This document shows positions 9,673 through 59,077 of a DNA stretch of 63,337 nucleotides, piece by piece (positions within the stretch are counted from its first letter, which is position 1; every line of letters starts with the position of its first letter). A model generated the notes under the pieces. It did no database searches, had not been told where the DNA came from, and saw only the letters and a program-made list of their open reading frames with translations. The stretch comes from a virus. Taxonomy: Duplodnaviria; Caudoviricetes. The DNA lies in IMG/VR virus record IMGVR_UViG_3300017747_003155, positions 1-63,337 of that record; one strand, given 5' to 3'. The translations under genes were made by a program, and so were the position numbers.

Positions 9673-10320
9673 ATGAAGATCGAACAAGTCCCACTGACCA
9701 GCATCCGGCCTCACCCGCGCAACTACCGCGAACACCCGGATGACCAACTCGACCACCTGAAGCAGTCGATCACCGAGCACGGGATCTACCGCAACATCGT
9801 GGTGTCGTCCGACAACTACATCCTCGCAGGCCACGGCGTCACGAAAGCCTGCACGGCACTCGGGATGACGGAAGTCCCCATCATCAGGATCGACGTACCC
9901 CACACGGACCCGAAAGCCCTCAAGCTGCTCGCGGCCGACAACGAACTGTCGAACCTCGCCGTCATCGACGACCGCGCCCTCACGGAACTCCTGAAGGAAA
10001 TCAAGGACACCGACCTCGACGGTCTGCTCGGCACCGGGTTCGATGAATCGATGCTCGCCAGTCTGGTGATGGTGACCCGCCCAGCATCCGAAATCGGAGG
10101 CATCGACGCCGCACGCGAATGGGTCGGCGCAGGAATGCCAGCCCACGACCCGGCAGAGAAGCGAGTCGTCCTGTCGGTATTCTTCACCAGTGAGGAAGAC
10201 CGCGCCAAATTCGTCGAGGAATTCAAGATCCCCCCGATCCTCACCAAGCGCCAATCCGTCTGGTCAACCTACTGGCCAGAACGAACCCGCGATGACCAGT
10301 CCAGCGTCCGCTTCGAATGA
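9673..10320 (+). CDS. ParB-like N-terminal domain protein
   Basis: 'PHPRNYREH...SITEHG...ILAGHG...LAADNELS'. Confidence 0.85.
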   Translation: MKIEQVPLTSIRPHPRNYREHPDDQLDHLKQSITEHGIYRNIVVSSDNYILAGHGVTKACTALGMTEVPIIRIDVPHTDPKALKLLAADNELSNLAVIDDRALTELLKEIKDTDLDGLLGTGFDESMLASLVMVTRPASEIGGIDAAREWVGAGMPAHDPAEKRVVLSVFFTSEEDRAKFVEEFKIPPILTKRQSVWSTYWPERTRDDQSSVRFE

Positions 10321-11213
10321 AACCACTCGCCCCACGCTACCCGGTCTATTGCATCTCCAAGGGCCGATCGGATTGCTGCCTCACCGCACAATTCCTCACC
10401 GCCGACAAAGTGGACTTCACCCTCGTGGTCGAGCCACAGGAACTCGAACTCTACGCGGCCCACTTCCCACGCGAAAGGATCGCGGTCCTGCCATTCAGCA
10501 ACCTCGGGCTCGGGTCCATCCCCGCCCGCAACTGGTGCTGGGAAGACGCCAAGGCCAAGGGCCACAAACGCCATTGGATCCTCGACGACAACATCCGGTG
10601 GGTCAGGCGCCTCTACCGCGGCAAACGCCTCCAGTGCAATTCCAAGTACGGCTTCACGGCCATCGAAGACTTCACCGACCGTTACGAGAACATCGGGATC
10701 GCAGGGATGAATTACACGATGTTCGTCCTGAACGACACCCCGACCCCGTTCTACCATAACTGCCACGTCTACTCCTGCCTGCTGATCGACAATGACCTCC
10801 CGTACCGCTGGCGCGGCCGATACAACGAGGACACCGACCTCTGCCTCCAAGTCCTGTCGGGCGGCTACTGCACCGTCCTCGTCAACACCTTCATGATCGA
10901 GAAAATGCGGACCATGACCATGAAGGGCGGGAACTCAGACCAACTCTACCAAGGCGACGGCCGCCTCAGGATGGCCCGGTCGCTCGAACGAGTCTGGCCA
11001 CACGTGGTTTCGGTCGACCGCCGCTTCCAACGCCCCCAGCATGTCGTCCGCGACTCATGGCGGAAATTCGACACCCCACTCAAGCTCAAACCCGGGATGC
11101 CGATCCACACCGAACCGGACGACCGCGGGATGAAGTTGGTGATGGTGAAGCCACCGAAGTCGAAATACATGCAGCAACTTCTGAACGAATTCCCGGCCGA
11201 CCCGCCTACGTGA
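10317..11213 (+). CDS. GT-A fold glycosyltransferase (GREB1/TET-associated type), putative DNA base modification
   Basis: 'YPVYCISKGR...VVEPQE...ARN...HWILDDNI...YSCLLI...WRGRYNEDTDLCLQ...TMKGGN'. Confidence 0.75.
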   Translation: MKPLAPRYPVYCISKGRSDCCLTAQFLTADKVDFTLVVEPQELELYAAHFPRERIAVLPFSNLGLGSIPARNWCWEDAKAKGHKRHWILDDNIRWVRRLYRGKRLQCNSKYGFTAIEDFTDRYENIGIAGMNYTMFVLNDTPTPFYHNCHVYSCLLIDNDLPYRWRGRYNEDTDLCLQVLSGGYCTVLVNTFMIEKMRTMTMKGGNSDQLYQGDGRLRMARSLERVWPHVVSVDRRFQRPQHVVRDSWRKFDTPLKLKPGMPIHTEPDDRGMKLVMVKPPKSKYMQQLLNEFPADPPT

Positions 11214-11265: not shown

Positions 11266-11874
11266 ATGAGCACCCCTCGCAACGCAACTCAGAAAGCCGA
11301 AGACGTCGCCTTCATCGCCAACCTGCGCCTTCGGCGTGTGACCTACAAGGACTGCCTCGAACTCATGAACGCGCGGCCGCACCGCGAGCCGATGTCGTGG
11401 GCATCGGTCCGGCGGATCGCCAAGGAGGCCGAGGACATGTGGAAGAAGGATGCGATCGCCGCCATCGAGACCGGGAAGGCGGAAATGCTGGCCGAGATCG
11501 AGTTGGTCCGGCAGGAGGCATGGGCGCTGTACGAGGAATCCAAAAAGTCGAAGACCGTGAAGCGTGCCGAGAAGGCCGGTGCCGGCGACGGCCGCGAAGG
11601 ATCGACAAAGCAGATCGTGACCGTCGAGGAACGGCTGGGAGACGTCAATGCGCTGAAGCTGGTGCTGGAAGCCCAAGAGCGGAAGGCGAAATTGCTCGGG
11701 CTGGACGCTGCCCAGAAGCAGGAACTGTCGGGCCCCGGAGGCACCCCGTTGGGCATCGGCACCCCGAAACTCACCGTCATCGTCAACACGCCCGTCGACG
11801 ATCGACCGTGGCATGAGAAGGTGGCGGCCGTCACTGGCCGGCGCATCGACCCCATCCCCGAACTCGAAGGCTGA
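11266..11874 (+). CDS. terS: Terminase small subunit
   Basis: Helical/HTH protein ending in the typical 'KLLGLDA.QKQELSGPGG.PL'; overlaps the TerL start. Confidence 0.75.
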   Translation: MSTPRNATQKAEDVAFIANLRLRRVTYKDCLELMNARPHREPMSWASVRRIAKEAEDMWKKDAIAAIETGKAEMLAEIELVRQEAWALYEESKKSKTVKRAEKAGAGDGREGSTKQIVTVEERLGDVNALKLVLEAQERKAKLLGLDAAQKQELSGPGGTPLGIGTPKLTVIVNTPVDDRPWHEKVAAVTGRRIDPIPELEG

Positions 11875-13277
11875 TGGCGGAACCGGGCGAAATCGTTCTC
11901 CAGTTGCACCCCAAGCAAAAGCTCGCGCTGGAATGCCCGGCGGACGAGGTTGTGTATGGGGGCGCGGCCGGCGGTGGCAAGTCCGGCCTGATGCGGGCGG
12001 CCAGCGTGGACTGGTGCATGAAGGTGCCCGGCCTGCAGGTCTATCTGTTCCGCCGCAACCGGATCGACCTCATCAAAAACCACTTCCAGTCGAGTTGGTC
12101 CTACCGGGACATCCTCGCCCCCCTGATCGCGACCGGCCACGCCCGGATCGTCCTGTCCAACAACCAGATTCGATTCTGGAACGGCAGCGTGATCCACCTG
12201 TGCTTCTGGCAGCGGGAGGAAGACCGGACCCGATACCAAGGTGCGGACATCCACGTTCTGCTGATCGACGAACTCACCCACTTCAAGGAGTCAGAATACC
12301 GGTTCCTACGCGGTCGTCTGCGCTTGGGTGGGTTGCCCATACCCCCCGGCCTCAAAACGCGCTTCCCGCGCGTCCTGTGCGGAACAAACCCCGGTGGCGT
12401 GGGGCATGTCTGGGTCAAAGAAGGCTGGGTCGACAAAGGCGAGTTCGTGGTCGAGCGCATGGACAAGACCGAAGGCGGGATGCTGCGCTGCTTCATCCCC
12501 GCCCGGACGGACGACAACCCGACGCTCGATGCCGACTATGAGGACAAGCTGTCCGGCCTCGGCGACCCCCTGTTGGTTCGAGCGATGCTCGACGGCGACT
12601 GGGAGATTGTGGCTGGATCGATGTTCGGGTCAACGTGGCGCCGCGAACTCCACACCTGCGACCCGTTCCCGATCCCGGCCGACTGGTCCATCTGGCGCGG
12701 GGCCGACGATGGCTTCGCAGATCCGCACGCCGTCGTCTGGATCACCAAGGACCCGAAGACCGGCACCCACTACATCATCGACGAACTCTACCGCTCCGGA
12801 ATGCTCCCCGAGGATGTCGCCCGCAAGACCAAGCAGATCGACGCTCAGATCACCCGGGAAAGCCCGGAAGGCCCGGTGCCGAACCATCAGGCTATCACGG
12901 GAATCCTCGACTCAGCGGCATTCGGGGACACCGGCACGGGCATCCCGCGCGGCGTGGCCTTCAACAAGCTGGGCCTGTACTATCGCCCCTGCATCAAGTG
13001 GCAGGGATGCCGGGCGGCCTACGCACAGCACTTCCATCGCCTCATGGCCCCGAACCCCAAGACCCCGATCGCGGGCCAGCCGGGGAAATTCTGGCCGTCC
13101 ATTCGGGTGTTCCGAAACTGCAAGGAATTCATCAAGCGGGTCCCGAACCTCCCGCGTGACGAACGCGACCCCGAGGTCATCGACGATGACGCCGAAGACC
13201 ACATTTTTGACGCCGCGGCCTACGGTCTGATGTGGAAGACAAACGAGTTTCGGCGCGCCTCGAAGACGGGCCTCTGA
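11874..13277 (+). CDS. terL: Terminase large subunit
   Basis: 'YGGAAGGGKS', 'LLIDELTHF', 'TNPGGVGH.WVK', 'DNPTL', nuclease 'GADDG', 'DHIFDA..Y'. Confidence 0.95.
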   Translation: MAEPGEIVLQLHPKQKLALECPADEVVYGGAAGGGKSGLMRAASVDWCMKVPGLQVYLFRRNRIDLIKNHFQSSWSYRDILAPLIATGHARIVLSNNQIRFWNGSVIHLCFWQREEDRTRYQGADIHVLLIDELTHFKESEYRFLRGRLRLGGLPIPPGLKTRFPRVLCGTNPGGVGHVWVKEGWVDKGEFVVERMDKTEGGMLRCFIPARTDDNPTLDADYEDKLSGLGDPLLVRAMLDGDWEIVAGSMFGSTWRRELHTCDPFPIPADWSIWRGADDGFADPHAVVWITKDPKTGTHYIIDELYRSGMLPEDVARKTKQIDAQITRESPEGPVPNHQAITGILDSAAFGDTGTGIPRGVAFNKLGLYYRPCIKWQGCRAAYAQHFHRLMAPNPKTPIAGQPGKFWPSIRVFRNCKEFIKRVPNLPRDERDPEVIDDDAEDHIFDAAAYGLMWKTNEFRRASKTGL

Positions 13278-23269: not shown

Positions 23270-23310
23270 ACCCCGGAACGGCTTTGAAACCCGTTCCGGG
23301 GTTTTTGTTT
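23270..23310 (+). terminator. Intrinsic terminator closing the 10-kb accessory block
   Basis: ACCCCGGAACGG-loop-CCGTTCCGGGGT followed by TTTTGTTT. Confidence 0.8.
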
Positions 23311-23341
23311 GTCCGGGCGACCCATCGTGCTATCGGTTGCG

Positions 23342-24964
23342 ATGCCCGTCTCTAATTGCCACCCCACCCACCAATCAGCAGTCGACCGCTGGCGCCAGAT
23401 CCGCGACTGCATCGACGGATCGCAGGCGGTGAAGGAAGGGGGAACCCTGTATCTCCCTTCGCTCGGGTCCCACACGGATGTCCCGGGTGCCTATGAGGCC
23501 TACAAGAAGCGCGCCCTGTACTTCAATGCGACGAACCGCACCCACGATGCGCTGCTCGGGTTCCTGTTCCGCAAACCGCCGGTCGTCCAGCTTGGCCCGA
23601 AGGACTCGAAGGCCACCCTGATCCCCGAGAACGAAGTCGCGAACATCGACCTGTCGGGCAATTCCATCACCGACTACTCCCGGCTGGTAGGCGACGATGT
23701 GGCGAGCGTCGGGCGCGCCGGCACACTGATCGACTGGATTCTGTCGGACGGCGTGGGCCGCCCTCGGTTCACGTTCTATTCGGCCGAATCGGTCATCAAC
23801 TGGCGCGGGCAGATGGTGAACGGGAAGATGCTCCTGACGATGCTGGTGCTGAAGGAAGTGGTTCGGGTGGAAAGCTCCGCGGACGAATTCGATGAACCCG
23901 AGGATGTCCAGTACCGGGTGCTGCGGCTCACGGACTCGGGTGTCGAGGTCGAGGTCCACACCGGGATCAAGGAAGATCCCAATTCGGATGTCCCGAAGCG
24001 CGGTGGGCAGGGGACGGGCGTGCCGTCCTTCGCGATCGAAAAACTCCCCCCGATGACGCGTCGCGGGCGACCCCTCATGGAAATCCCGTTCGTGTTCCAC
24101 AACGCCGACCACATCGGGATGGACATCGGGATTTCCCCCCTGTATGACCTCAGCGAAGTCAACATCAGCCACTACCAGACCAGCGCCGATGTCGAGAACG
24201 CCAGCCACGTTCTGGGAGTCCCGACCCCGTACGCCTTCGGGTTGACCAGCGGTGGCGAACCCGTGAAGGCGGATCTACTGTACCTCGGCGGGCCGGCGTG
24301 GGTCAGCGACAACGCCGATGCCCAAGTCGGGTTCCTCGAATTCACCGGCCAAGGCCTCGGGGCCCTGAAGGATCGACTGGCCGAAAAGCTGCAAGCGATG
24401 GCGGCGATCGGCGCGCGGATGATCGAACCAAAGCAGGGGGATGCCGAGGCATTCGAGACGGTGGCGCTCCGGGCGACCAGCGAGACCTCCGCACTGGCCA
24501 GCATCGCCTCGTTCATCTCCCGCTCGATGACCGATGCCCTGAAGTGGTATGTCTGGTGGACATCGACCGAGGACTCCTACGAGGACATCAAGGACGTCCG
24601 GTTCGAGATCAACCGCGACTTCGTGGCGACCCGCCTGCAGCCGGCCGAACTGACCGCCCTGCTCGCCGCATACCAGTCCGGCGCCATCTCGTTCGAGACG
24701 ATGTTCTTCAACTTCCAGCGTGCCGACCTGTACCCGCCGGACCACGACCTCGAAACCGAACGCGCCGCGATCGACGAACAACTCCAGATGCCGATCCCGG
24801 GCGCCCGCGGCGAAGCCTTCAATGCCGAGCGCGAGGACGCCGCAGCAGAGGCCGACGCCGAGGAAGATCCCGAGGAAGACCCGACATTCGGCAAACCGGC
24901 GGCGAAGAAGGCGGCGAAGAAAGCGGCCAAGAAGGCGGCTGGAAAACGCCCGCCGGCCGAGTAA
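23342..24964 (+). CDS. Portal protein (DUF4055-like)
   Basis: 'YEAYKKRALYFNAT', 'AESVINWR', 'PLYDL...NISHYQ.SAD', 'GARM', 'GAIS.ET'; C-terminal AAKK repeats. Confidence 0.9.
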   Translation: MPVSNCHPTHQSAVDRWRQIRDCIDGSQAVKEGGTLYLPSLGSHTDVPGAYEAYKKRALYFNATNRTHDALLGFLFRKPPVVQLGPKDSKATLIPENEVANIDLSGNSITDYSRLVGDDVASVGRAGTLIDWILSDGVGRPRFTFYSAESVINWRGQMVNGKMLLTMLVLKEVVRVESSADEFDEPEDVQYRVLRLTDSGVEVEVHTGIKEDPNSDVPKRGGQGTGVPSFAIEKLPPMTRRGRPLMEIPFVFHNADHIGMDIGISPLYDLSEVNISHYQTSADVENASHVLGVPTPYAFGLTSGGEPVKADLLYLGGPAWVSDNADAQVGFLEFTGQGLGALKDRLAEKLQAMAAIGARMIEPKQGDAEAFETVALRATSETSALASIASFISRSMTDALKWYVWWTSTEDSYEDIKDVRFEINRDFVATRLQPAELTALLAAYQSGAISFETMFFNFQRADLYPPDHDLETERAAIDEQLQMPIPGARGEAFNAEREDAAAEADAEEDPEEDPTFGKPAAKKAAKKAAKKAAGKRPPAE

Positions 24965-50076: not shown

Positions 50077-51393
50077 ATGAGCGTAAGAGCATTCGTCGGA
50101 TTCGACCTCGGCAGGGACACCTCCACGGTGAGCGCCTACCCGGGCACCAACTGGACCAACAACCTCAATGCCTACATCGCTTGGGCAAAACCCGTCTACG
50201 TCACCCACAACAGCGGCGTGAGCCCGTGGAACAGCGACGCCCAACCGGCCAACGCCAGCGGGAACCAGAACTTTCATTTCTTCACCCGGCCAAGCAACGC
50301 AGGTATGGCCTACGGACACGCGTCCAACGGTGGGAATTTCAGCGGCCGATACACCGGGGCCACGACCATGACTCGGGCCGCATGGCGCACCGCGAAGGGC
50401 CACCAACTAGCCCTCAGTCGCAGTCGGGTGATCCCGGCGCTGACCAACACGGAACTGTGGTTCACCTTCGACATCTCGTTTCCCAGCCTCGGCGGATCGA
50501 GCATCGCGAGCGGCCTGAGCGCAGATTCCTACGGGGCCATGTGGAAATGGGGAGACCTGAGCGTCTACGTCAAGAGCACGACATGGATCAGCGGCACCAC
50601 CCACGACATCGTCTTCAGCGTCCGCAACGGGGCGAGCGAGGTCGCGACCGTGACGGTCCCGAGCGTGGTGACCAATGACACCTTCGCGAGCGCCGCCGCG
50701 CTCTTTGTGACGATCCAAGCCAAGCTCGACGCCACGACCGGAATGATCGCCGTGGCGATCAATGGCAATGCCCAGAGCGTGGCCTACACCGGCCAGAACA
50801 CGGTCGCGACGACCAGCGACGCCGCCGCGAGCGAGATCTACTTTGGCCCCCCGGTGATCGACGACGGCACGAACGTCTACGTCGGAATGATCGACCATTT
50901 CTTGGTCGACGACGCCGCCTTCCCGGCCGGCCGGCCGACCGTGCGCCTCATCACCCTGAACGCCGATGTGAGCCTGAGCGGGGTGGCGGCGGCTGGCACC
51001 AGCCCGACTACGGTGGCGAATGCGCTGACGGGCCCGACGGACGCAAAGCAGGCGCGGTGGAGCACCACGACAGGGAGCGCCGAGATGAGCATGACGATGC
51101 CGAGCACGACCGGGATGCTTTCGGATGTCCTTGGGTTCGAGGTCATCGCCCAGCGCGCCGCGAACCGATACCCCACCGCTGCCTTGAAACTCCGGGTCGG
51201 GATGAAGCTGAGCGGCGTGGAGGCGGAAGACGAATACTGCCAAGTGCAATCGCTGGCATTCTCGTCTATCCTCACACCACCGGAAACCGCCGCCACCAGC
51301 CCATGCGCTCAGATTTGGGAGAAGGGCGGCGGTGGCAAATTCCAGACTACCGACCTCGCCAGCACCACGATTCTACTCACCTCACAGACCTGA
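50077..51393 (+). CDS. Putative receptor-binding protein, paralog A
   Basis: Beta-rich; colinear with the next gene. Confidence 0.65.
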   Translation: MSVRAFVGFDLGRDTSTVSAYPGTNWTNNLNAYIAWAKPVYVTHNSGVSPWNSDAQPANASGNQNFHFFTRPSNAGMAYGHASNGGNFSGRYTGATTMTRAAWRTAKGHQLALSRSRVIPALTNTELWFTFDISFPSLGGSSIASGLSADSYGAMWKWGDLSVYVKSTTWISGTTHDIVFSVRNGASEVATVTVPSVVTNDTFASAAALFVTIQAKLDATTGMIAVAINGNAQSVAYTGQNTVATTSDAAASEIYFGPPVIDDGTNVYVGMIDHFLVDDAAFPAGRPTVRLITLNADVSLSGVAAAGTSPTTVANALTGPTDAKQARWSTTTGSAEMSMTMPSTTGMLSDVLGFEVIAQRAANRYPTAALKLRVGMKLSGVEAEDEYCQVQSLAFSSILTPPETAATSPCAQIWEKGGGGKFQTTDLASTTILLTSQT

Positions 51394-51395
51394 TT

Positions 51396-52733
51396 ATGGC
51401 ACTCAAGATGTTCATGGGGTTCGATCCCTGCGACGGCGAAAGCCAAGCCCTCATGCTGTCCGGCGTGATGCAGTGGCAGACTGGATCGACGCAATTCCCG
51501 ATCCCGCCGTGGCTGTTCCATAACAAAGGACTGGCGACGTTGGATCAGTCGATTCATCCGCCGGCGCCGGCATCGACGACGACGAAATCCGCCTTCATGC
51601 CGAGGGAAAACACCTTGGCGTTCGGCTGTTGTTATTTCCCGACCAACAGCACATCGACGATGCCGATCAACTACGGGGCAGCCACCGCGACCACTCGAGC
51701 CGTCTGGGCGACCGCGCAGGGCGCGCAACTGGCGATCGCTCGCAACCAAGTACCCGGCGGACTGAGCGCGAACGAGTACTGGTTCAGCTTCGAGGTTTGC
51801 CCGCCCAACTTCAACAGCGTCGACATGGCGAGCGGGTACGAACCGACCGCCGACTGGGCCGCGATCTTCCGCTGGGGTGATGTTCAGATCCGGGCTAAGA
51901 GCGCGACTCGGAACAACACCACCGGCTACTACAACATGGTCTTCTCGGTGCGGAACAACGGCACCGAGATTGCCACGATCACCGTCCCGCAGGTGAATGC
52001 CGGTGGTTCCTTCGCATCGACTTCGTGGCTCTGGGTGTTGGTAAAGGTGAAGCTCCACGCCACGACCGGCAGCATCGAAGCGTACATCAACGGCAACGGG
52101 ATGAGCGCCAGCTACACGAACCAGAACACCGTCAACACCATCGCGAATGCTTCCGAGAACGGGATGTACTTTGGTCCGATCGTGATGGACAACGGGACCA
52201 ACGCCTATGTGGGCGGACTGGACAGCATCATCATCGACGATGCCGCGTGGCCGAGCGGGCGCCCGACGGTGCGCTTCTGGGCTGTCGCCAGCGACGGCAC
52301 TTTGACGAACGCGGCCGCGGCCGGGACAAGCCCAACCACGGTCGCCAATGCGATCGCGACCGGCAGCACGACCAGCCGCAACGATGCGAAGCAACTTCGC
52401 TTCAGTGCGGTCTCGGGCCGAGCGGAACTGAACATGACGGCCCCGTCGACGACCGGCTTCAATACTCAGGTCCTTGGTTTCTTCGGGATCTTGCAGCGAG
52501 CCGCGAGTCGCAACCCGACCGGCGCTCGACGCATTCGACCGAGCGTGAAGGTGTCCGGGGTCGACTATCAGGACGCGATCCACTCCGCGGTGTCGCTGCC
52601 GTTCTCCAGCATCGTCACCCCGCCGGAAACGCTCGGCGTGAACGTCCTGTGGTTCACCGACAAGGCCGGCTCGCGCTTCACGACCACCGACCTTTCGACC
52701 GCGCAACTGGTGCTCGAATCCATCACGGCATGA
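51396..52733 (+). CDS. Putative receptor-binding protein, paralog B
   Basis: Shares 'F.GFD', 'VFSVRN..E.AT.TVP', 'YFGP', 'AAAGTSPTTVANA', 'FSSI.TPPET', 'TTDL' with paralog A. Confidence 0.65.
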   Translation: MALKMFMGFDPCDGESQALMLSGVMQWQTGSTQFPIPPWLFHNKGLATLDQSIHPPAPASTTTKSAFMPRENTLAFGCCYFPTNSTSTMPINYGAATATTRAVWATAQGAQLAIARNQVPGGLSANEYWFSFEVCPPNFNSVDMASGYEPTADWAAIFRWGDVQIRAKSATRNNTTGYYNMVFSVRNNGTEIATITVPQVNAGGSFASTSWLWVLVKVKLHATTGSIEAYINGNGMSASYTNQNTVNTIANASENGMYFGPIVMDNGTNAYVGGLDSIIIDDAAWPSGRPTVRFWAVASDGTLTNAAAAGTSPTTVANAIATGSTTSRNDAKQLRFSAVSGRAELNMTAPSTTGFNTQVLGFFGILQRAASRNPTGARRIRPSVKVSGVDYQDAIHSAVSLPFSSIVTPPETLGVNVLWFTDKAGSRFTTTDLSTAQLVLESITA

Positions 52734-53641
52734 CCGAAAACTTCGCCACCACCCTGATCGTCGAGGAAGACGCCACCGGCCCCGCGGGTTTGGTGGCGGG
52801 TCCGTTTATGGTCAACTCGATTTCGGCCCTCCTTGGCCGGGAGGCATTGACCTCGCTGCAGTCGCGGGATTTCTGGCGCGCGGTCACGAAAACGGTCCCC
52901 ATCCTGTCTACATTCGCTCTGGGGTGGGAATTCGACGTCGGCGACTCCGAGTGCACCGAAATCATCTTCGATGCGCTGGCGGACCCGACTCGCGGCGACG
53001 ACACGGCTGGGGTGCGGACATGGCGGATGGGACGGCCGGACGACATCCGGCGATTCAACTTCATCATCGACCCGGTGGAAGGCGGGCACTTCGAGCTTCG
53101 CGCCGCGGCGCTCCGGTCGGCTCAGTTTGCGATCGAGCGCGGGCGCCTTGCCACCTGCCTGACCCAGTGGGTGGGTCGGGAGTTGACGACGGACGATTCT
53201 GCCCCGTCGAGCACGGCGGCCTCCAACACGCGGTTCGCTTCGGCCCCGACCTGCACGATCACGCTGGACGGCTGGGACATCCCGGTGTTCTCGGGCGCGA
53301 TCGCCTTCAACCGTGACGTTCAGCCGGCGCAGTTTGACCTGAACAACGTGGCGTCGAAGTGGACCGGCGAGCAATCGGTCGATGTCCTCGGGCGGATCAA
53401 CACCCGCCTGTCCAGTGGGAACTTCGCCAGCCTGATGCGCGGCGGGGTGATTGAAAAGGCCATCACGGTCACGATGACGGCCGGGGCCCGCGTGCGGGTG
53501 ATCGAGCTTCCGGTGTGTCGGTTGGAGGTCTCGGAGCGTACTCTGGTTGGTGAAGGCACCTACGAGCATTTGGTTCAATTCGCCGTTGTCCGGTCGGAAG
53601 GCGCGGACATCATGACTGCCACATCAGAAGACACCCCATGA
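52730..53641 (+). CDS. Divergent tail-tube-fold protein (second tube-like gene)
   Basis: Motifs colinear with the core of 33457..34995 (see findings). Confidence 0.55.
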   Translation: MTENFATTLIVEEDATGPAGLVAGPFMVNSISALLGREALTSLQSRDFWRAVTKTVPILSTFALGWEFDVGDSECTEIIFDALADPTRGDDTAGVRTWRMGRPDDIRRFNFIIDPVEGGHFELRAAALRSAQFAIERGRLATCLTQWVGRELTTDDSAPSSTAASNTRFASAPTCTITLDGWDIPVFSGAIAFNRDVQPAQFDLNNVASKWTGEQSVDVLGRINTRLSSGNFASLMRGGVIEKAITVTMTAGARVRVIELPVCRLEVSERTLVGEGTYEHLVQFAVVRSEGADIMTATSEDTP

Positions 53642-53756
53642 CCACCACCTTGAATTTCGGTCCCCATGGGCTATCGCAAGCGATGCTCGCCCCAACCTTG
53701 GACGATCAGGCCGCCATGACGATTTGGGTCACTGGCGAACCCGAGCACGACCGCCC

Positions 53757-54329
53757 ATGCCACCACGCCGCCAACAACCAGAACCCTCCGAAATCCCGTC
53801 GTCCGCAATTCACCATGCCTTCTGGTCTCGCTCGCCAGTGGGCATGGCACGAGTCGGACGGGATGGTACGTTCTTACAGGTCAATCCGGCCTTTTGTGCC
53901 ATCACAGGATACTCCGAGCGCGAACTGCTTGTCAGAACATATCAATCCATCACCCACCCTGCTGACCTTGCTGCTGACGAATCTGAAGCAGAGCATCTAT
54001 CCGGCCACCCCGAAGGCACAGGTTATTCGATGGCAAAACGCTATGTGCGCAAAGATGAACGGATTGTGTGGTGCGAGCTTCATGTGTCCGCGCTCTGCTC
54101 GGAAACCGATGCCTTCGCCTTTTTCGTCGTCTTCGCGGTCCCACTCCCGACCGGCGCCAGCTACCGAGCCGAGTCCAAGGACGGGGCGGTTGTGGTACGG
54201 CCTAGTGCTCGTTGGATTGACCTCTTTCGCGACAATCCTCGGGAATCACTTCTGGTCATTGCTTGCCTCTTTGGGTTCGTGAAGGGGGAATCGCTGGTGG
54301 ACTTTTTGCTCCACCTGTTCAAGAAGTAG
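53757..54329 (+). CDS. PAS-domain protein with C-terminal hydrophobic segment
   Basis: 'SPVGMARV.RDG.FLQVNPAFCAITGYSEREL...YQSITHPAD...KRYVRKD..IVW.ELHVS' is a canonical PAS/PAC; tail 'LLVIACLFGFVKGESLVDFLLHLFKK'. Confidence 0.88.
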   Translation: MPPRRQQPEPSEIPSSAIHHAFWSRSPVGMARVGRDGTFLQVNPAFCAITGYSERELLVRTYQSITHPADLAADESEAEHLSGHPEGTGYSMAKRYVRKDERIVWCELHVSALCSETDAFAFFVVFAVPLPTGASYRAESKDGAVVVRPSARWIDLFRDNPRESLLVIACLFGFVKGESLVDFLLHLFKK

Positions 54330-54332
54330 CGG

Positions 54333-54500
54333 ATGCGACCCCTGCTGCTTCTCTGCGCCACCCTGTTGACCACCGGGTGCGGTTCGATCGACCGCATCGC
54401 ATTCACTGTCGGCTACGACAAGGCCACGGTCGGGATCGAGGCCGATCTGCGGGACCCCGGGAAAAATCCGATTGGCAAGCGCCGCCCTTCTGGCAAATAG
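54333..54500 (+). CDS. Small lipoprotein (spanin candidate), 55 aa
   Basis: MRPLLLLCATLLTTG-C lipobox followed by an amphipathic beta segment; below the ORF-track cutoff. Confidence 0.65.
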   Translation: MRPLLLLCATLLTTGCGSIDRIAFTVGYDKATVGIEADLRDPGKNPIGKRRPSGK

Positions 54501-54504
54501 GGGG

Positions 54505-54864
54505 ATGCGCGACCGCATTCTTCAACTCATCATCGCGGACCGTACCCGCGTCCTGACCCTCCTTGTCAGCCTCGTCCTCGCCCTCTGCGGCGGGATCGCC
54601 ACCAAGTTGCTCGGGTTCGAGCTTACGACCGAGCACAACGCCCAGATCACCCTCATCGTCACCCTTGTGTTCGGGTGGATCATCGAAGCCTACGCGGCCG
54701 AAGTGAACGCGAAGGGGGCCGCCAAGGTTCAGCAATCGCTCCAGCGAATTGACCCGAACCTCCAAGTCGATCGCTACATCGGCGATCAGACCATTGCTGT
54801 CGCGGACGATGCCGCTACTCAGATCGTGCTCAGCGGCAATACGGCGCCACCCACCAAGAAATAA
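54505..54864 (+). CDS. Holin-like two-TM membrane protein
   Basis: Two hydrophobic helices, basic C-terminus, near the endolysin. Confidence 0.65.
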   Translation: MRDRILQLIIADRTRVLTLLVSLVLALCGGIATKLLGFELTTEHNAQITLIVTLVFGWIIEAYAAEVNAKGAAKVQQSLQRIDPNLQVDRYIGDQTIAVADDAATQIVLSGNTAPPTKK

Positions 54865-55156
54865 AGAACGCCAGAGCGCCAAGGAAACCGCAGAGCAGCG
54901 CGAATATCACCGCGATGATGAGCGGAAGATCCCGCTCGGGTTTCACGGATGAAACGTGCTGGAAGGTCCGACGGACATCATCCAGCAGAGCAGGGGCCTC
55001 GACCTTGCGTGGGTCAATGCCATCGTCGGCCAGATTGCAATGCCAGCCGTTCACGTATCCGACGATCTGACACTCGCGAGCGGTGAGTGGGAAGATTTCA
55101 GGATCGGCAATCGTGTTGCCGTCCTGATGGTCATTTGCTGGGGAGGGATTTTTCAT
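54830..55156 (-). CDS. Antisense membrane protein (C-terminal TM)
   Basis: MKNPSP...LPLIIAVIFALLCGFLGALAFFISWW; overlaps the end of the upstream minus-strand gene. Confidence 0.55.
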   Translation of the reverse strand: MKNPSPANDHQDGNTIADPEIFPLTARECQIVGYVNGWHCNLADDGIDPRKVEAPALLDDVRRTFQHVSSVKPERDLPLIIAVIFALLCGFLGALAFFISWWVAPYCR

Positions 55157-55547
55157 AGGTCTGGACGGTGTCGAGGATGCCTTCACTGAGATTGACGAGT
55201 GCCACCTTGGCCTCCGGGGTGGAGAGGTAATCGGCCTTCGGTTTGTAGGACCGGACCAGCGCGGCCGCCATGGCGCTGTACGCGGGTTCCGCCGAGACTT
55301 CATTGAGCGCGATCGCGAGTGCTTCCGCGGTCGGGGACTCGGACAACGCGACCAGTTGGATCTTCGCTGCCGCGAGTCGAAGTTCACTGAGCGCCTTGGC
55401 CCGGCGGGCGTCCGGCACCTGTTCGAGATAGGCCACGGTCGCGATCGATGCGGCGGGGCGAATTTGTGCCGGCTCGAACTGCAGGCCGGCGCAGGACGCC
55501 AGCAGACATGATGCGATGCAGGCGAGGATGGGTAGTCGGTGTTTCAT
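55131..55547 (-). CDS. Antisense lipoprotein
   Basis: MKHRLPILACIASCLLAS-C lipobox; helical mature part. Confidence 0.75.
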   Translation of the reverse strand: MKHRLPILACIASCLLASCAGLQFEPAQIRPAASIATVAYLEQVPDARRAKALSELRLAAAKIQLVALSESPTAEALAIALNEVSAEPAYSAMAAALVRSYKPKADYLSTPEAKVALVNLSEGILDTVQTYEKSLPSK

Positions 55548-55606
55548 GGTCGCGAAGCGAAACGCGGGTTGACCCAGCCCGCAAGCGGGAATAATCGTCC
55601 GCACCC

Positions 55607-56143
55607 ATGAAAATCGAATCCCACATTGTGAAGCTCACGCTGCTTCTTTTCGCAGCCATCCTAGCCATCATTCTGTCCACGGCCGCACAGGCACAGGAGA
55701 AACCCGTTCGAGTCGTCTGGGACCCGCCTGAAGGCGAGGAAGTCCAGCGTGTCGACGGCTACAATGTTTACCGGGTGACCATCACCCCGATGCTGCGGCC
55801 CGCCGACTACGATGTGAACCTGACCACGCCGCTGGCGCCCGAATACACGATGGCCTACCAGAAACTGAACACCGAACTGATCCCCAAGGGCACGTTCGAG
55901 TTCACGATCGAAAAGGCGACGCCCGGCTTCCAGACGATCGTGCGAGCGTACTCGAAGACATGGGATGTCGAATCGCCCGACTCGGATGTCCTGACCCTAC
56001 GGGATGCCCCCGGCAAGGTGCAAGGCCACAAAGTGACGGCATTGGTGCTCGAATCCTCTGTCGACCTCCAGAAGTGGGTGCAGCGTGCCGTGTACGAACT
56101 CGCCTTCGTGGCCCCCACCGAAGTCTTCCGTCTCCGCTGGTAA
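55607..56143 (+). CDS. Secreted fibronectin-III-like protein with C-terminal 'LESSxDLxxW...FRLR' motif
   Basis: Sec signal ending AQA; 'VVWDPP...VDGYNVYR...VRAY...ESPDS'. Confidence 0.7.
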   Translation: MKIESHIVKLTLLLFAAILAIILSTAAQAQEKPVRVVWDPPEGEEVQRVDGYNVYRVTITPMLRPADYDVNLTTPLAPEYTMAYQKLNTELIPKGTFEFTIEKATPGFQTIVRAYSKTWDVESPDSDVLTLRDAPGKVQGHKVTALVLESSVDLQKWVQRAVYELAFVAPTEVFRLRW

Positions 56144-56155
56144 CCCGTCACCGCC

Positions 56156-56773
56156 ATGCAGATCACCCCTTCGCACTACCTCGACACCGCCATCAAGGAT
56201 GTTCTGCCGGGCGGCGAGCCGATGAATGTCCGGCGGTTCCTCGTCATCCACTTCACGGGCGGCTGGACGGCCCAGTCCAGCATCGACTTCTGGCGGACGA
56301 AAGCCGCGAAGGGAGCGAACGCGCATCTCATCATCGACCGCGACGGCACGACCTTCCAGTGTCGACCGTTCAACCGCACGGCCGGCCACGCCGGGGTGAG
56401 TCGCTGGACGGACCCGAAGACCGGGATCGTCTACCGCGGCCTGAATTCGTGCAGCATCGGGATCGAGCTTGCCAACTGCGGCGACCTCGCCCGTTCGACC
56501 TACCCGCAGACGATGCCGATTGGCTTCGCGGGCGAACCGATCCCGCGCTACCGCGGACGACACAAGAACGGCGGGCAGACCAAAGACTGGGAGACCTACG
56601 ACAAGCGGCAACTCGACGCCGTGCTGGCGATCGGTCGACTGCTCTGCACCCGATACAAGCTCGACGACGTTGTCGGGCATGACGACATCGCCCCCGAGCG
56701 CAAGAACGATCCCGGCCCGGCATTCCCGATGACCGAGATCCGGGGGGCACTCGGATATCCGCCATTGCCATGA
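56156..56773 (+). CDS. Endolysin, N-acetylmuramoyl-L-alanine amidase (Amidase_2)
   Basis: 'LVIHFT', 'AHLIIDRDG', 'HAG.S.W', 'NSCSIGIELAN', 'GHDDIAP.RK.DPGP.FP'. Confidence 0.95.
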   Translation: MQITPSHYLDTAIKDVLPGGEPMNVRRFLVIHFTGGWTAQSSIDFWRTKAAKGANAHLIIDRDGTTFQCRPFNRTAGHAGVSRWTDPKTGIVYRGLNSCSIGIELANCGDLARSTYPQTMPIGFAGEPIPRYRGRHKNGGQTKDWETYDKRQLDAVLAIGRLLCTRYKLDDVVGHDDIAPERKNDPGPAFPMTEIRGALGYPPLP

Positions 56774-56868
56774 CACCATTTTCGCTATTCTTTCCATCGT
56801 TGGCGCTCGCCGTGTGGCGGGCAAACCGATCGCTGGACCCAAGACAAAGACCCATACAACTGAACATC

Positions 56869-57204
56869 ATGCCCGGAAATTATTCTGCCACTCAGGCCAT
56901 CACCGTCATCGGTGCGCTGCTCGCCCTCGCGGGTGAACTGCGTGTCCAACTGAAGGAAGCCAAGGCCGCACTGAAACCCGCACAGGACGACTTGCGCGCC
57001 CTTGCGGAAGAAGACGCCGCGATCGAAGCCAAGCTGGCCGAGGTCCAAGCGACCCTCGACGGCTGGAGCGCCGAAGATGCCGCCCCGACCGACCCGGAGA
57101 CTCCACCGACCGATCCGGTGCCTCCGACCGACCCCGCGCCACCGGAGGACCCCGTCCCCCCAGCGGGCGATGGCGGCGACCTCGCGCCGCCCGCGGGGCA
57201 GTAG
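56869..57204 (+). CDS. Coiled-coil protein with PTDP repeats (lysis-associated, possible spanin)
   Basis: Short hydrophobic N-terminus, heptads, (P-T/E-D-P-x-P)n tail. Confidence 0.55.
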   Translation: MPGNYSATQAITVIGALLALAGELRVQLKEAKAALKPAQDDLRALAEEDAAIEAKLAEVQATLDGWSAEDAAPTDPETPPTDPVPPTDPAPPEDPVPPAGDGGDLAPPAGQ

Positions 57205-57234
57205 TTTTCATCCTGTCGCGAGGATGATGTGTGG

Positions 57235-57273
57235 GTGAAGGCCGATCCTTTTGGGGGTCGGCCTTCACTGTTT
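57235..57273 (+). terminator. Intrinsic terminator ending the late region
   Basis: GTGAAGGCCGATCC-loop-GGGTCGGCCTTCAC followed by TGTTT. Confidence 0.75.
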
Positions 57274-57305
57274 CTCGGGTCGGGGTCAAAAGAACCCAAC
57301 CCGAG
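57274..57305. repeat. 32-bp palindrome H4
   Basis: CTCGGGTCGGGGTCAAAAGAACCCAACCCGAG. Confidence 0.9.
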
Positions 57306-57348
57306 ATTTTGGGGGCGCTCTCGATATAGCCGGGAAAAGTTTATGAAG

Positions 57349-57400
57349 ATGCGCAACTTTTGTTTACAGTTTGCGCAAAGGTTGATAGAATGGCATCTCC
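57349..57400 (+). promoter_or_regulatory. Operator-bearing promoter P7
   Basis: TTTACA(57363)-N17-TAGAAT(57386); TGCGCAA and TTGCGCAA. Confidence 0.85.
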
Positions 57401-57414
57401 ACCCCACCGCATCC

Positions 57415-57624
57415 ATGAAAATCGAAATCATCCAAGCCATTCAGGATCGTCTCGCTGAGAACGCGGCCGGCCTTACTCCAGCCGAGCGTTACGAGCTTCA
57501 TCCTGATTCGCAGTATGGCGGCGACGGTCCATGGAACAACTACGGCGAGGAAGACGGTCCGCCGGCCCCGTACGTCCCTTTTGTTTGGGTCAACGACGGT
57601 CCTCCTGCTCCCGATTTCTTTTGA
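57415..57624 (+). CDS. Hypothetical protein (first gene after P7)
   Basis: Start motif CCACCGCATCCATG. Confidence 0.65.
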   Translation: MKIEIIQAIQDRLAENAAGLTPAERYELHPDSQYGGDGPWNNYGEEDGPPAPYVPFVWVNDGPPAPDFF

Positions 57625-57648
57625 TCGACCCCCCACCCCACCGCATCC

Positions 57649-57861
57649 ATGATCCACGCCGTCCGCATCCACTTCGTTCGCGAGTTTACCTCCGGCGCCT
57701 TGAAGGGCCTGACCCACAAGGAATGGATCCAATTCGTCTCCCGCGATCGCGCCGCCAAATGGTGCCGGGGAATCCGCCGCAACGCCCGTGCCGGTCTGCT
57801 CGACTACCGCCTGCAATCCTTTTCCGTCGAACACATCACCATCAACCCACTGAAACCATGA
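57649..57861 (+). CDS. Hypothetical protein
   Basis: Start motif CCACCGCATCCATG. Confidence 0.65.
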   Translation: MIHAVRIHFVREFTSGALKGLTHKEWIQFVSRDRAAKWCRGIRRNARAGLLDYRLQSFSVEHITINPLKP

Positions 57862-58130
57862 ACGATACACGCCGCAAAGCCATCCAGAAGATCCGCTCCG
57901 AAATCGAAGAACTGAAGTCCAAGGCCGAAGACCTGAAGTCCCAGATCGAGACCATCAAGGACGAAGAACAGGAGTACTTCGACAACATGCCCGAGGGACT
58001 TCAATCGTCCGAGAAAGGCGAACGCGCCGAGGAAGCGATCAGTGCCCTTGAGCAAGCGGAATCAAGTCTCGGAGACATCGACTGCGCGCTGGACGAAGCG
58101 TTTGATTCGCTCGATACTGCCGCCGCATAA
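57858..58130 (+). CDS. Conserved phage coiled-coil hypothetical protein
   Basis: 'MN..RRK.I...EEQEYFDNMPE.LQ.SEKGE.AEE'. Confidence 0.8.
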   Translation: MNDTRRKAIQKIRSEIEELKSKAEDLKSQIETIKDEEQEYFDNMPEGLQSSEKGERAEEAISALEQAESSLGDIDCALDEAFDSLDTAAA

Positions 58131-58165
58131 ATTCACCCCACAACCAACCACGATCCACCACACCC

Positions 58166-59077
58166 ATGAAAGTCCACTCGCTCGCCTTCATCAAAGAATG
58201 CCCCGACAAAGCGCCGCTCGAAGCGGTCGAAGGCACCATCACCAAACTGTTCGGGCGCAAGTCCGGCACCACCGCCAAGGGGGAATGGTCGCTCCAGAAC
58301 GGCGAACTCATGACGCCCGAAGGCCCGATCGGCATCCTGTTCAACGGATGCCCGGAAGTCGATCAGTCATGGCGGAACAAGAAGGTCCGCATCTGCTCGA
58401 CCGTCCACGACAACAAGCGTTCGGGCCTGTATGCCCACGATGACAAATACAAGGGCAACCAGACCCGGATCGTCCGGATGACCTCGACCTATCAGATGTT
58501 CGACCTCGCCCAAGCGCATCAGGGTGGCGGACTGGTCGAGGCGTTCGACCAGCGGAATGCCCCGCCTTCGCAGCAGGCGCCCGCCCCAGCGCCCGAACCG
58601 CAGCGGGTGTACGATCATGCCCCCCAGACCCAAAACGCGCCTACACGCCAACCTCAGGCAAATGGCGACTTCGACTTCGTGACCGCCGTTCGGCAGAAGA
58701 TCGCGAAGATCGCCTGCCTGCAGTCCGTCTGCTACGATGCCGCGGTCCACAACGCGCACCGGATCTTCGAGAATCACGGCATCGCGATCATGCCCGGCGC
58801 GGTCGGGGTGATGGGTGACAAGATCTTCATGGAAACCATCCGCCGCATCGACATCGACCTCCTGCCGATGGATTCCTACAAGCAGCACCCCTTCAAGGGC
58901 AAGCCGATGGACATCCTGATCCCGCACATGCGCCAGCAGATCGCCGAAGGGAAGGCTGAAATCGACTGGGGCGCGAACGAGGCCCGCCACGCCCTTGGCC
59001 AACAGGCGATGACCCAAGCCGCCAACACCCCGCCCCCGATTGCCGAAGAACACGTGGACGAGACGGTCCCTTTCTGA
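58166..59077 (+). CDS. OB-fold ssDNA-binding protein (RPA-like N-terminus, acidic PF tip)
   Basis: Beta-rich N-domain, Pro/Gln linker, C-terminal 'EEHVDETVPF' like SSB tips. Confidence 0.6.
   Translation: MKVHSLAFIKECPDKAPLEAVEGTITKLFGRKSGTTAKGEWSLQNGELMTPEGPIGILFNGCPEVDQSWRNKKVRICSTVHDNKRSGLYAHDDKYKGNQTRIVRMTSTYQMFDLAQAHQGGGLVEAFDQRNAPPSQQAPAPAPEPQRVYDHAPQTQNAPTRQPQANGDFDFVTAVRQKIAKIACLQSVCYDAAVHNAHRIFENHGIAIMPGAVGVMGDKIFMETIRRIDIDLLPMDSYKQHPFKGKPMDILIPHMRQQIAEGKAEIDWGANEARHALGQQAMTQAANTPPPIAEEHVDETVPF

Follow-up and report, generated by a model that had tools for sequence, protein, structure and literature searches.

The window analysed here is an entire IMG/VR virus record (IMGVR_UViG_3300017747_003155; 63,337 bases, completeness estimate 95%), in which nearly all of the plausible genes lie on the + strand. 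At 53757..54329 on that strand, downstream of two fibre-like genes and upstream of an amidase-type endolysin gene, it carries a gene for a 190-residue protein that consists of a PAS domain and a C-terminal tail, which we call the PAS-tail protein. The gene was identified from the list of open reading frames (ORFs), its homologue P0135, matches to Pfam PAS families and the family alignment described below. Its frame is open from a TTG at 53724, which would give a 201-residue ORF, to the stop codon at 54327-54329. The ATG at 53757 is the likely start because the nearest homologue, P0135, is likewise 190 residues long and aligns from residue 1; the TTG is a possible start. A second + strand frame begins at an ATG at 53638 that overlaps the upstream stop codon (ATGA), and it runs for 214 residues across the PAS-tail gene. 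Over its first 40 codons, this frame (53638-53850) has a G+C content at third codon positions (GC3) of 0.72, compared with 0.51 for the PAS frame there. A short coupled ORF may lie upstream of the PAS-tail gene (53638-53850); the homologues belong to the PAS frame.

An initial reading of the DNA letters and ORF translations (the sequence-only reading) described this protein as a complete PAS domain that lacks a kinase, GGDEF or helix-turn-helix output, and both parts of that description were borne out. Five Pfam PAS models exceed their cut-offs over residues 35-137 of the 201-residue ORF, including PAS_3 (E 2.3e-9, 37.8 bits against a cut-off of 25.6), PAS (33.7 bits against 22.6) and PAS_9 (31.3 against 27). 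The Pfam scan of the ORF returned PAS families only, with no kinase, GGDEF, helix-turn-helix or DNA-binding domain. An AlphaFold2 model computed from an 18-sequence alignment has a mean predicted local distance difference test (pLDDT) value of 85.5, with 91-98 in the core, and supersedes an earlier, poor model computed from two sequences (pLDDT 61.5). The core of the model comprises a helix (residues 15-24) followed by five strands and helices in PAS order. It superposes on the PAS chain 3lyx with a Z score of 18.3 and a root-mean-square deviation (rmsd) of 1.7 Å over 118 residues (VIA-align), and on the flavin adenine dinucleotide (FAD)-binding PAS domain of NifL, 2gj3, with a Z score of 17.2. 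Likewise, Foldseek assigns a probability of 1.00 to many PAS chains, and the PDB matches cover model residues 13-133. The protein is thus a member of the PAS superfamily both by curated Pfam cut-offs and by superposition on solved PAS domains. According to the model and the PDB matches, the N-cap helix and PAS core together make up residues 1-133 (53757..54155, + strand; GC3 0.57). The fold matches take in FAD, flavin mononucleotide (FMN) and heme PAS domains, and no cofactor can be inferred from the fold alone.

The PAS-tail protein belongs to a family of short proteins. A single-sequence search gave one clear relative, and a profile search confined to similar lengths returned 13 proteins (170-195 residues) with scores of 142-343 bits, well over ordinary PAS hits. 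These 13, together with P0168, P0135, the members read from two further loci and the window protein itself, constitute the 18 members considered here. They are 170-216 residues long and 28-53% identical to the window protein, and none has an output domain. Their alignment contains 12 invariant and 11 nearly invariant columns, and common to all 18 are the N-cap helix, a PAS core with ITHPxD and KRYxRKDG motifs, and a family-specific tail. A PAS-bearing PHROG whose function is unlabelled (phrog_5982) matches 15 of the 18 members, and a PADLOC search with the PAS-tail protein returned no family at E <=0.01. Four members (P0156, P0157, P0158 and P0162) are encoded on contigs of 5.8-29.3 kb.

What sets the family apart is its tail, which spans residues 134-190 of the window protein (57 residues; 54156..54326, + strand), as delimited by the alignment, the model and the hydrophobic runs, and which is the most family-specific part of the protein in the 18-sequence alignment. 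In the window protein it consists of a beta-hairpin with VRPS, a short helix that ends in DNPR, a hydrophobic helix of 12 residues and a charged, amphipathic stretch of 15 residues that closes with HLFKK; the C-terminus reads ...SLLVIACLFGFVKGESLVDFLLHLFKK. The model places strands at residues 136-141 and 144-149 and helices at 153-159, 161-176 and 180-189, with pLDDT values of 64-82, and residues R148, P149, D155 and N160 are conserved. The corresponding family pattern is P-L-P, a hairpin with V-R-P-S, a short helix that ends in D-N-[WP]-[KR], then the hydrophobic helix and an amphipathic stretch of about 15 residues, the last of which is usually Lys. Pfam gave nothing better than E 0.21 for nine tails, PDB chains gave no match to the tail beyond a single helix, Atlas clusters gave no usable match, and no holin family was matched (Pfam on nine tails, PHROGs on the 18 members).

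The sequence-only reading had taken the hydrophobic helix and its KK end for a membrane anchor. The C-terminus is as it described, but the anchor was not confirmed: a C-tail anchor has one hydrophobic span of about 18 or more residues near the C-terminus, whereas the uncharged hydrophobic run is 12 residues long in the window protein and 10-17 across the 18 members, and it ends 13-43 residues short of the C-terminus across the family. The Kyte-Doolittle mean over 19 residues reaches at least 1.6 in 7 of the 18 members (1.71 in the window protein), and the flanks of the helix (D-N-[WP]-[KR] before it and a conserved acidic or basic residue after it) look like those of a membrane span. Judged from these features, membrane association of the PAS-tail protein is plausible and a canonical span is not established; the helix may cross the membrane as a short segment, lie in its plane as an anchor or serve in oligomerisation.

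We found the full architecture of PAS core plus tail only on phage-like DNA among the searches made here. When 1.84 billion representatives were searched by HMMER with a profile of two sequences, 107,098 proteins matched at E <=0.001; among the matches listed, 149 of 150 are longer PAS proteins of 397-2840 residues (all but five above 800), and only P0135 (190 residues) is a full-length relative. IMG/VR scans with the PAS-tail protein and with four alignments found no relative, and the scan with a further alignment, A6, found three PAS-only matches and one further family member on a 21.6-kb viral contig, L162. One member came from a scan of one genome per species, where it lies in a Nitrospira metagenome-assembled genome on contig L082 (44.9 kb). 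This contig is phage-like: it encodes the N-terminus of a T7-like tail fibre and an M15 endolysin, among other matches to phage families. Across 301 Nitrospirales genomes there are 41 matches past E 1e-32, of which only the L082 copy extends to the tail, in a short frame (223 residues); the other 40 end by model position 149 in frames of 282-2899 residues and are therefore ordinary signalling proteins. The full-length form was not found in the 300 other Nitrospirales genomes. The tail-only model A5 proved an insensitive search of Nitrospirales, missing even the known member in genome G001, and a genome scan with the tail pattern HFVSWILP found nothing. In a metagenome scan with generic PAS patterns, the 80 loci kept are PAS-core matches, and the contigs of P0154 and P0158 were not recovered. 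One metagenome match that extends to residue 180, L052, was rejected as a relative; it is a 655-residue histidine kinase. Among GenBank phages, blastn with window positions 53000-57300 gave no match, and tblastn with two family members found no relative in 50,697 records.

The PAS core, by comparison, is of the common bacterial S-box kind, as in kinases. It matches PAS domains of large bacterial signalling proteins at E 1e-33 to 1e-41 and is 40-48% identical to the bacterial matches of the metagenome and one-genome-per-species scans. The earlier proposal that the gene was captured from a signalling gene thus survives in a remote sense, in that the core resembles the PAS domains of S-box kinases. 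A fresh capture does not, because this is an established family with its own conserved tail and none of the 300 other Nitrospirales genomes searched yielded its full-length form. We accordingly set aside a recent origin of the window phage's gene in a host kinase, the tail and the N-cap being conserved family-wide.

Genomic context is available for three family loci: the window, L082 and L162. In L082 the family gene (9980-10519, + strand) follows a T7-like tail-fibre gene with a beta-helix and a lipoprotein gene, and precedes genes for a Peptidase_C92 protein and a Peptidase_M15_4 endolysin (PHROG endolysin match, E 2e-28), the latter 0.45 kb downstream. The ATG of the C92 gene overlaps the stop codon of the family gene (ATGA). 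The product of this coupled gene (L082 10516-10986, + strand) matches Pfam Peptidase_C92, a permuted papain-like amidase, at E 5e-7, and PHROG 1128, labelled enoyl-CoA hydratase/carnitine racemase-like in the moron category, at E 8e-35; the two labels disagree. In L162 the family gene (9947-10474, + strand) follows a gene for a Gly-rich fibre-like protein, which has no family match, and two small genes. It is followed by genes for a serine hydrolase, a 70-residue lipoprotein, an 83-residue protein and a 201-residue protein, and here it is the serine hydrolase gene that overlaps the stop codon of the family gene (ATGA).

All three family genes therefore lie on the same strand as, and downstream of, tail or tail-fibre-like genes, at the junction with envelope-acting genes, and all three abut the next gene, with a 3-nucleotide gap in the window and the ATGA overlaps with hydrolase genes in L082 and L162. 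A lipoprotein gene lies within two genes of the family gene in each case, and a peptidoglycan hydrolase or recognised endolysin is encoded 0.45-1.8 kb downstream in two of the three. The window phage, with its tape measure and HK97-type head, and L082, with its T7-like tail fibre, seem to belong to different types of phage, and this speaks against the arrangement having simply been inherited. Partners that are made together would be expected to show just such an ATGA overlap with a hydrolase gene, here present in two unrelated phages. Thus, the link to the lysis region proposed in the sequence-only reading gained support from the post-tail, abutting position in 3/3 loci and from the hydrolases in 2/3, within a sample of only three. 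These neighbourhoods raise the odds that the PAS-tail protein works with a lysis or envelope module, a role in timing being unproven.

In the window itself, the two fibre-like genes (50077-51393 and 51396-52733, + strand) are paralogues whose products of 438 and 445 residues share 190 identities in a global alignment (about 43%); neither matches Pfam or PHROG. They are followed by a gene for a 303-residue protein, the PAS-tail gene, a lipoprotein gene, a gene for a protein with two hydrophobic segments, an opposite-strand lipoprotein gene, and genes for a secreted 178-residue protein, the Amidase_2 endolysin and a 144-residue protein, and finally by a terminator-like hairpin. The putative 55-residue lipoprotein (MRPLLLLCATLLTTGC...; 54333..54500, + strand; GC3 0.79) begins 3 nucleotides past the PAS-tail stop codon. 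It has a signal-like start and LTTG followed by C, which we take to be a lipobox, read by eye against the consensus, and it matches no Pfam, PHROG or PADLOC family. The 119-residue protein with two hydrophobic segments, a holin candidate, is encoded at 54505..54864 (+ strand), 4 nucleotides past the lipoprotein stop codon (54498-54500), so that the spacing first read from the sequence was exact.

The description of this two-segment protein as holin-like fared less well. Its backing is a sub-threshold match to Pfam Holin_LLH (Phage_holin_6_1; E 0.023, 15.5 bits against 24.9) and a set of Atlas look-alikes at 0.87-0.88 that include two holin clusters and are rated as a lead only; no PHROG matched it. 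Nine homologues that are 57-74% identical and start with MRDR, MKDR or MKNR occur on metagenome contigs of up to 53.8 kb, which indicates that relatives of this phage exist outside IMG/VR, where scans with this protein or with the upstream 303-residue protein found no relative. A predicted complex of the PAS-tail protein with the two-segment protein scored 0.00 (mark 0.32), a result that counts neither way on binding.

A holin is expected to be small, to cross the membrane one to three times and to have its gene next to that of the endolysin. The gene for the two-segment protein lies 1.3 kb from the amidase gene, and an opposite-strand gene lies between them. This gene (55131..55547, - strand; GC3 0.75) interrupts the run of + strand genes and encodes, by its translation, a lipoprotein (MKHRLPILACIASCLLASC...) that matches no Pfam, PHROG or PADLOC family. 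Downstream of it on the same strand is a possible 108-residue ORF (54830-55156, - strand; GC3 0.53-0.70) with a terminal hydrophobic segment (19-residue mean 2.84). The two look like an inserted two-gene accessory unit, and the region as a whole looks mosaic. The 178-residue protein (55607..56143, + strand) has an N-terminal signal or anchor (19-residue mean 2.48 at residues 7-25) and no Pfam, PHROG or PADLOC family. The endolysin, an N-acetylmuramoyl-L-alanine amidase, is encoded at 56156..56773 (+ strand), 1.8 kb downstream of the PAS-tail gene; it matches Pfam Amidase_2 at E 1e-25 and lysis PHROGs such as phrog_1794 at E 1e-18. The gene for the 144-residue protein (56770..57204, + strand) overlaps the amidase stop codon. 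Its product has one hydrophobic segment and a C-terminal part that is rich in Ala and Glu and then in Pro; it looks spanin-like by eye and is possibly a spanin-like or holin-like partner, with no Pfam or PHROG family past threshold. PADLOC, run on nine neighbours, found no family for eight of them and a marginal match (E 0.0092) for the 144-residue protein.

The terminator-like hairpin lies at 57180-57198, and no hairpin separates the PAS-tail gene from its neighbours before 57180. The sequence-only reading had given the PAS-tail gene its own predicted promoter, a claim we could not reproduce: in a consensus scan of 52500-58200, the + strand shows nothing promoter-like ahead of 57363. The region's only strong promoter-like site (57363-57391; 10/12 matches, with a TG extension) is 3' of the 144-residue protein gene and the hairpin.

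Our best single guess, which we hold tentatively, is that the PAS-tail protein modulates the lysis step or its timing in an antiholin-like manner. The protein would be a cytoplasmic single-domain PAS sensor that is kept at, or partly in, the inner membrane by its hairpin, hydrophobic helix and amphipathic helix. It would be made late, on one transcript with the tail and lysis genes, and its translation would run directly into the next gene. The PAS domain may sense something inside the cell, for instance a small ligand or the redox or energy state, and through its tail the protein would hold back or permit the lesion that the small membrane proteins encoded beside it open in the membrane, giving it an antiholin-like or holin-accessory role. 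A stronger version, in which a membrane-tethered sensor of energetic or metabolic state or of a small molecule directly holds or releases the lesion as a PAS-gated lysis clock, we consider doubtful; in its boldest form, the PAS-tail protein would itself be the gated holin.

Several observations weigh against a lysis role. The uncharged hydrophobic run is at least 15 residues long in 5 of the 18 members and at least 18 in none, and because the helix is this short, insertion beside a holin is unproven. No cofactor or ligand site has been pinpointed in the PAS-tail protein, and the identity of the two-segment protein as a holin, judged on its sequence matches, is weak. Neither L082 nor L162 has a two-segment protein beside its family gene, and no endolysin was recognised in L162, where the 201-residue candidate gave no Pfam, PDB-sequence or informative PHROG match. 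The loci with context are also few. The space between tail-fibre and lysis genes is also a usual home of accessory genes, so position alone cannot separate a lysis role from an accessory one. Finally, the low GC3 of the family gene in two high-GC phages fits a gene that moves between phages.

This last point rests on codon composition. The sequence-only reading noted that the codons of the PAS-tail gene end in A or T more often than those of its neighbours, and the counts agree: its GC3 is 0.60, compared with 0.816 ± 0.029 (minimum 0.746) in 34 confident window genes, and none of 781 pieces of 162 codons taken from those 34 genes has a GC3 of 0.62 or less. The L082 family gene has a GC3 of 0.61 against 0.74-0.82, and that of L162 has 0.64, against about 0.64 for its phage; in the window and L082 the neighbouring genes use 0.74-0.84. 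The family gene thus stays at 0.60-0.64 in all three, regardless of phage composition, a uniformity that could reflect repeated transfer among phages or selection for modest or slow translation.

Such composition is also what would be seen if the PAS-tail gene were an accessory (moron-type) gene outside the lysis machinery, as a membrane-associated PAS decoy or as part of a superinfection-exclusion system with the lipoproteins. This explanation is possible, and we rate it nearly as likely as a role in lysis. As a decoy, the protein would pair with the PAS domains of the host's sensor kinases or energy sensors and so dampen signalling in the infected cell. Heterodimerisation with host PAS domains is conceivable because the core so closely resembles those of bacterial signalling proteins. 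A lipoprotein gene lies next to or near the family gene in 3/3 loci, the window having the opposite-strand one as well, and lipoproteins encoded next to tail-fibre genes, such as Llp and Cor, are well known as exclusion factors. A precedent for a single-domain PAS protein that acts in trans on a kinase relay is MopJ (PMC4620464). Against an accessory gene, no promoter-like site of its own lies upstream of the PAS-tail gene in the window, and the tight coupling to downstream hydrolase genes in 2/3 loci suits a working partner better than a free-standing moron. Apart from the marginal match to the 144-residue protein, PADLOC recognised neither the PAS-tail protein nor its neighbours. A role in lysogenic conversion lacks support because no integrase or repressor was found among the 30 window ORFs scanned with Pfam and PHROG, a scan that was not exhaustive.

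A second alternative makes the PAS-tail protein a new type of holin, in which the hydrophobic and amphipathic helices would form oligomers within the membrane and the PAS domain would serve as the protein's own gate on the cytoplasmic side. Lipoprotein signal peptides aside, we found no further + strand ORF that encodes a hydrophobic segment in the roughly 2-3 kb around the family gene of L082 or L162, and the M15 endolysin and C92 protein of L082 would need a holin because their starts have, by eye, no signal-like hydrophobic stretch. The family-specificity of the tail would also suit a holin. However, at 10-17 residues the hydrophobic runs fall on the short side for a span, and the tail resembles no holin family searched. 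The window has its own two-segment candidate immediately downstream, and in L082 two small ORFs with hydrophobic segments about 2.2-2.6 kb past the endolysin could supply the holin. We therefore regard a holin as improbable.

Still less probable is a helper in tail-fibre assembly or another virion-related process. The position downstream of tail or fibre-like genes in 3/3 loci would suit one, and 170-216 residues is a typical size for fibre-assembly helpers. However, only 1 of the 18 members touched a tail PHROG, and marginally (E 0.0054), other small genes separate the fibre gene from the family gene in L082 and L162, and we know of no fibre chaperone that combines a PAS fold with a hydrophobic tail. 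That the gene is a captured fragment in decay or without function, as the atypical codon usage and the lack of a demonstrated partner might suggest, is equally hard to credit given an intact frame, that degree of column conservation among 18 proteins at 28-53% identity, a non-PAS tail that is conserved too, and a confident model.

Elsewhere in the window, PHROG matches include a large terminase, a portal, a head-morphogenesis protein, an HK97-type major head protein, a minor tail protein, a tape measure, a J-like tail protein, helicases and a DnaC-like loader. Given the terminase, portal, HK97-type head, tape measure and tail matches, the phage is long-tailed. Its large-terminase and portal genes (11874-13277 and 23309-24964, + strand) are about 10 kb apart, with the terminase upstream and many small ORFs between them, an unusual separation. 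A 298-residue protein encoded at 10317-11213 (+ strand) matches PHROG 842 (beta-glucosyl-HMC-alpha-glucosyltransferase) at E 5.7e-39, which hints at sugar-modified phage DNA. One sequencing run contains the PAS-tail region, a freshwater metagenome that may be its source; no RNA run was listed.

If the preferred reading, modulation of lysis by the PAS-tail protein, is correct, a ligand- or redox-sensing domain wired to lysis would give the lysis clock a new type of input. To our knowledge, lysis timing has so far been described as depending on holin build-up and membrane energisation, with superinfection as a further input in T-even-like phages. Such a domain would also offer a natural, compact switch for engineered lysis. 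In the stronger, lysis-clock version, the moment of lysis would be set by a sensed cue and not by holin accumulation alone. Even if it is accessory, the combination of a PAS domain with a hairpin-helix tail is an unnamed architecture and a tractable case of a phage using a bare sensor domain.

Among solved structures, the PAS domains of Colwellia CPS_1291 (3lyx) and NifL (2gj3), ARNT PAS-B and short LOV proteins have the same fold over residues 13-133. These chains superpose on the model with Z scores of 18.3 to 15.3 and rmsd values of 1.2-5.2 Å over 101-140 aligned residues, at 14-26% identity to the window protein, and none covers the tail (residues 134-190) beyond a single helix. Closer in size are the predicted "PAS domain" proteins of uncultured Caudovirales in BFVD (A0A6J5KZZ3, 169 residues; A0A6J5QVN9, 195 residues; A0A6J5NY05, 205 residues). 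Foldseek matches these to the model at E 1e-6 to 1.5e-5, with only 10-16% identity over 105-121 columns, which correspond to the PAS core, so that they were compared by the core alone.

Functional likenesses can be drawn to three systems, in each case within what the accessible parts of the sources describe. VqmA(Phage) of vibriophage VP882 is described as both a receptor and a transcription factor, one that bears on the choice between lysis and lysogeny (PMC8284805). Like the window protein it is a phage-encoded PAS protein, and it ties a small-molecule cue to host killing (PMC8284805). Unlike VqmA(Phage), the window protein has no DNA-binding domain, has a hydrophobic tail, and is encoded in the late region beside lysis enzymes. 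The T4 antiholins RI, which is periplasmic and is reported to sense superinfection there, and RIII, which is cytoplasmic (PMC11413866, PMC8385771), are small phage proteins that bind the holin and delay lysis in response to a signal, and by analogy they may serve as a working model for the window protein. We found no relation in sequence or fold between the two, and the window sensor would be a cytoplasmic PAS domain. MopJ of Caulobacter crescentus is a single-domain PAS protein of the host that targets components of a kinase relay (PMC4620464). It shares with the window protein a stand-alone PAS domain that lacks an enzymatic output, and it acts in trans (PMC4620464); its available text makes no mention of a conserved hydrophobic tail or of a link to phage or lysis (PMC4620464). 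A full-text literature search, judged from abstracts, found no report of a PAS protein within the lysis cassette of a phage. On the published accounts so covered, phage PAS proteins (VqmA(Phage) and the predicted small ones) and the signal-responsive antiholins of T4 are already known; what is new here is a single-domain PAS protein that ends in a conserved tail of a new kind and recurs next to lysis enzymes.

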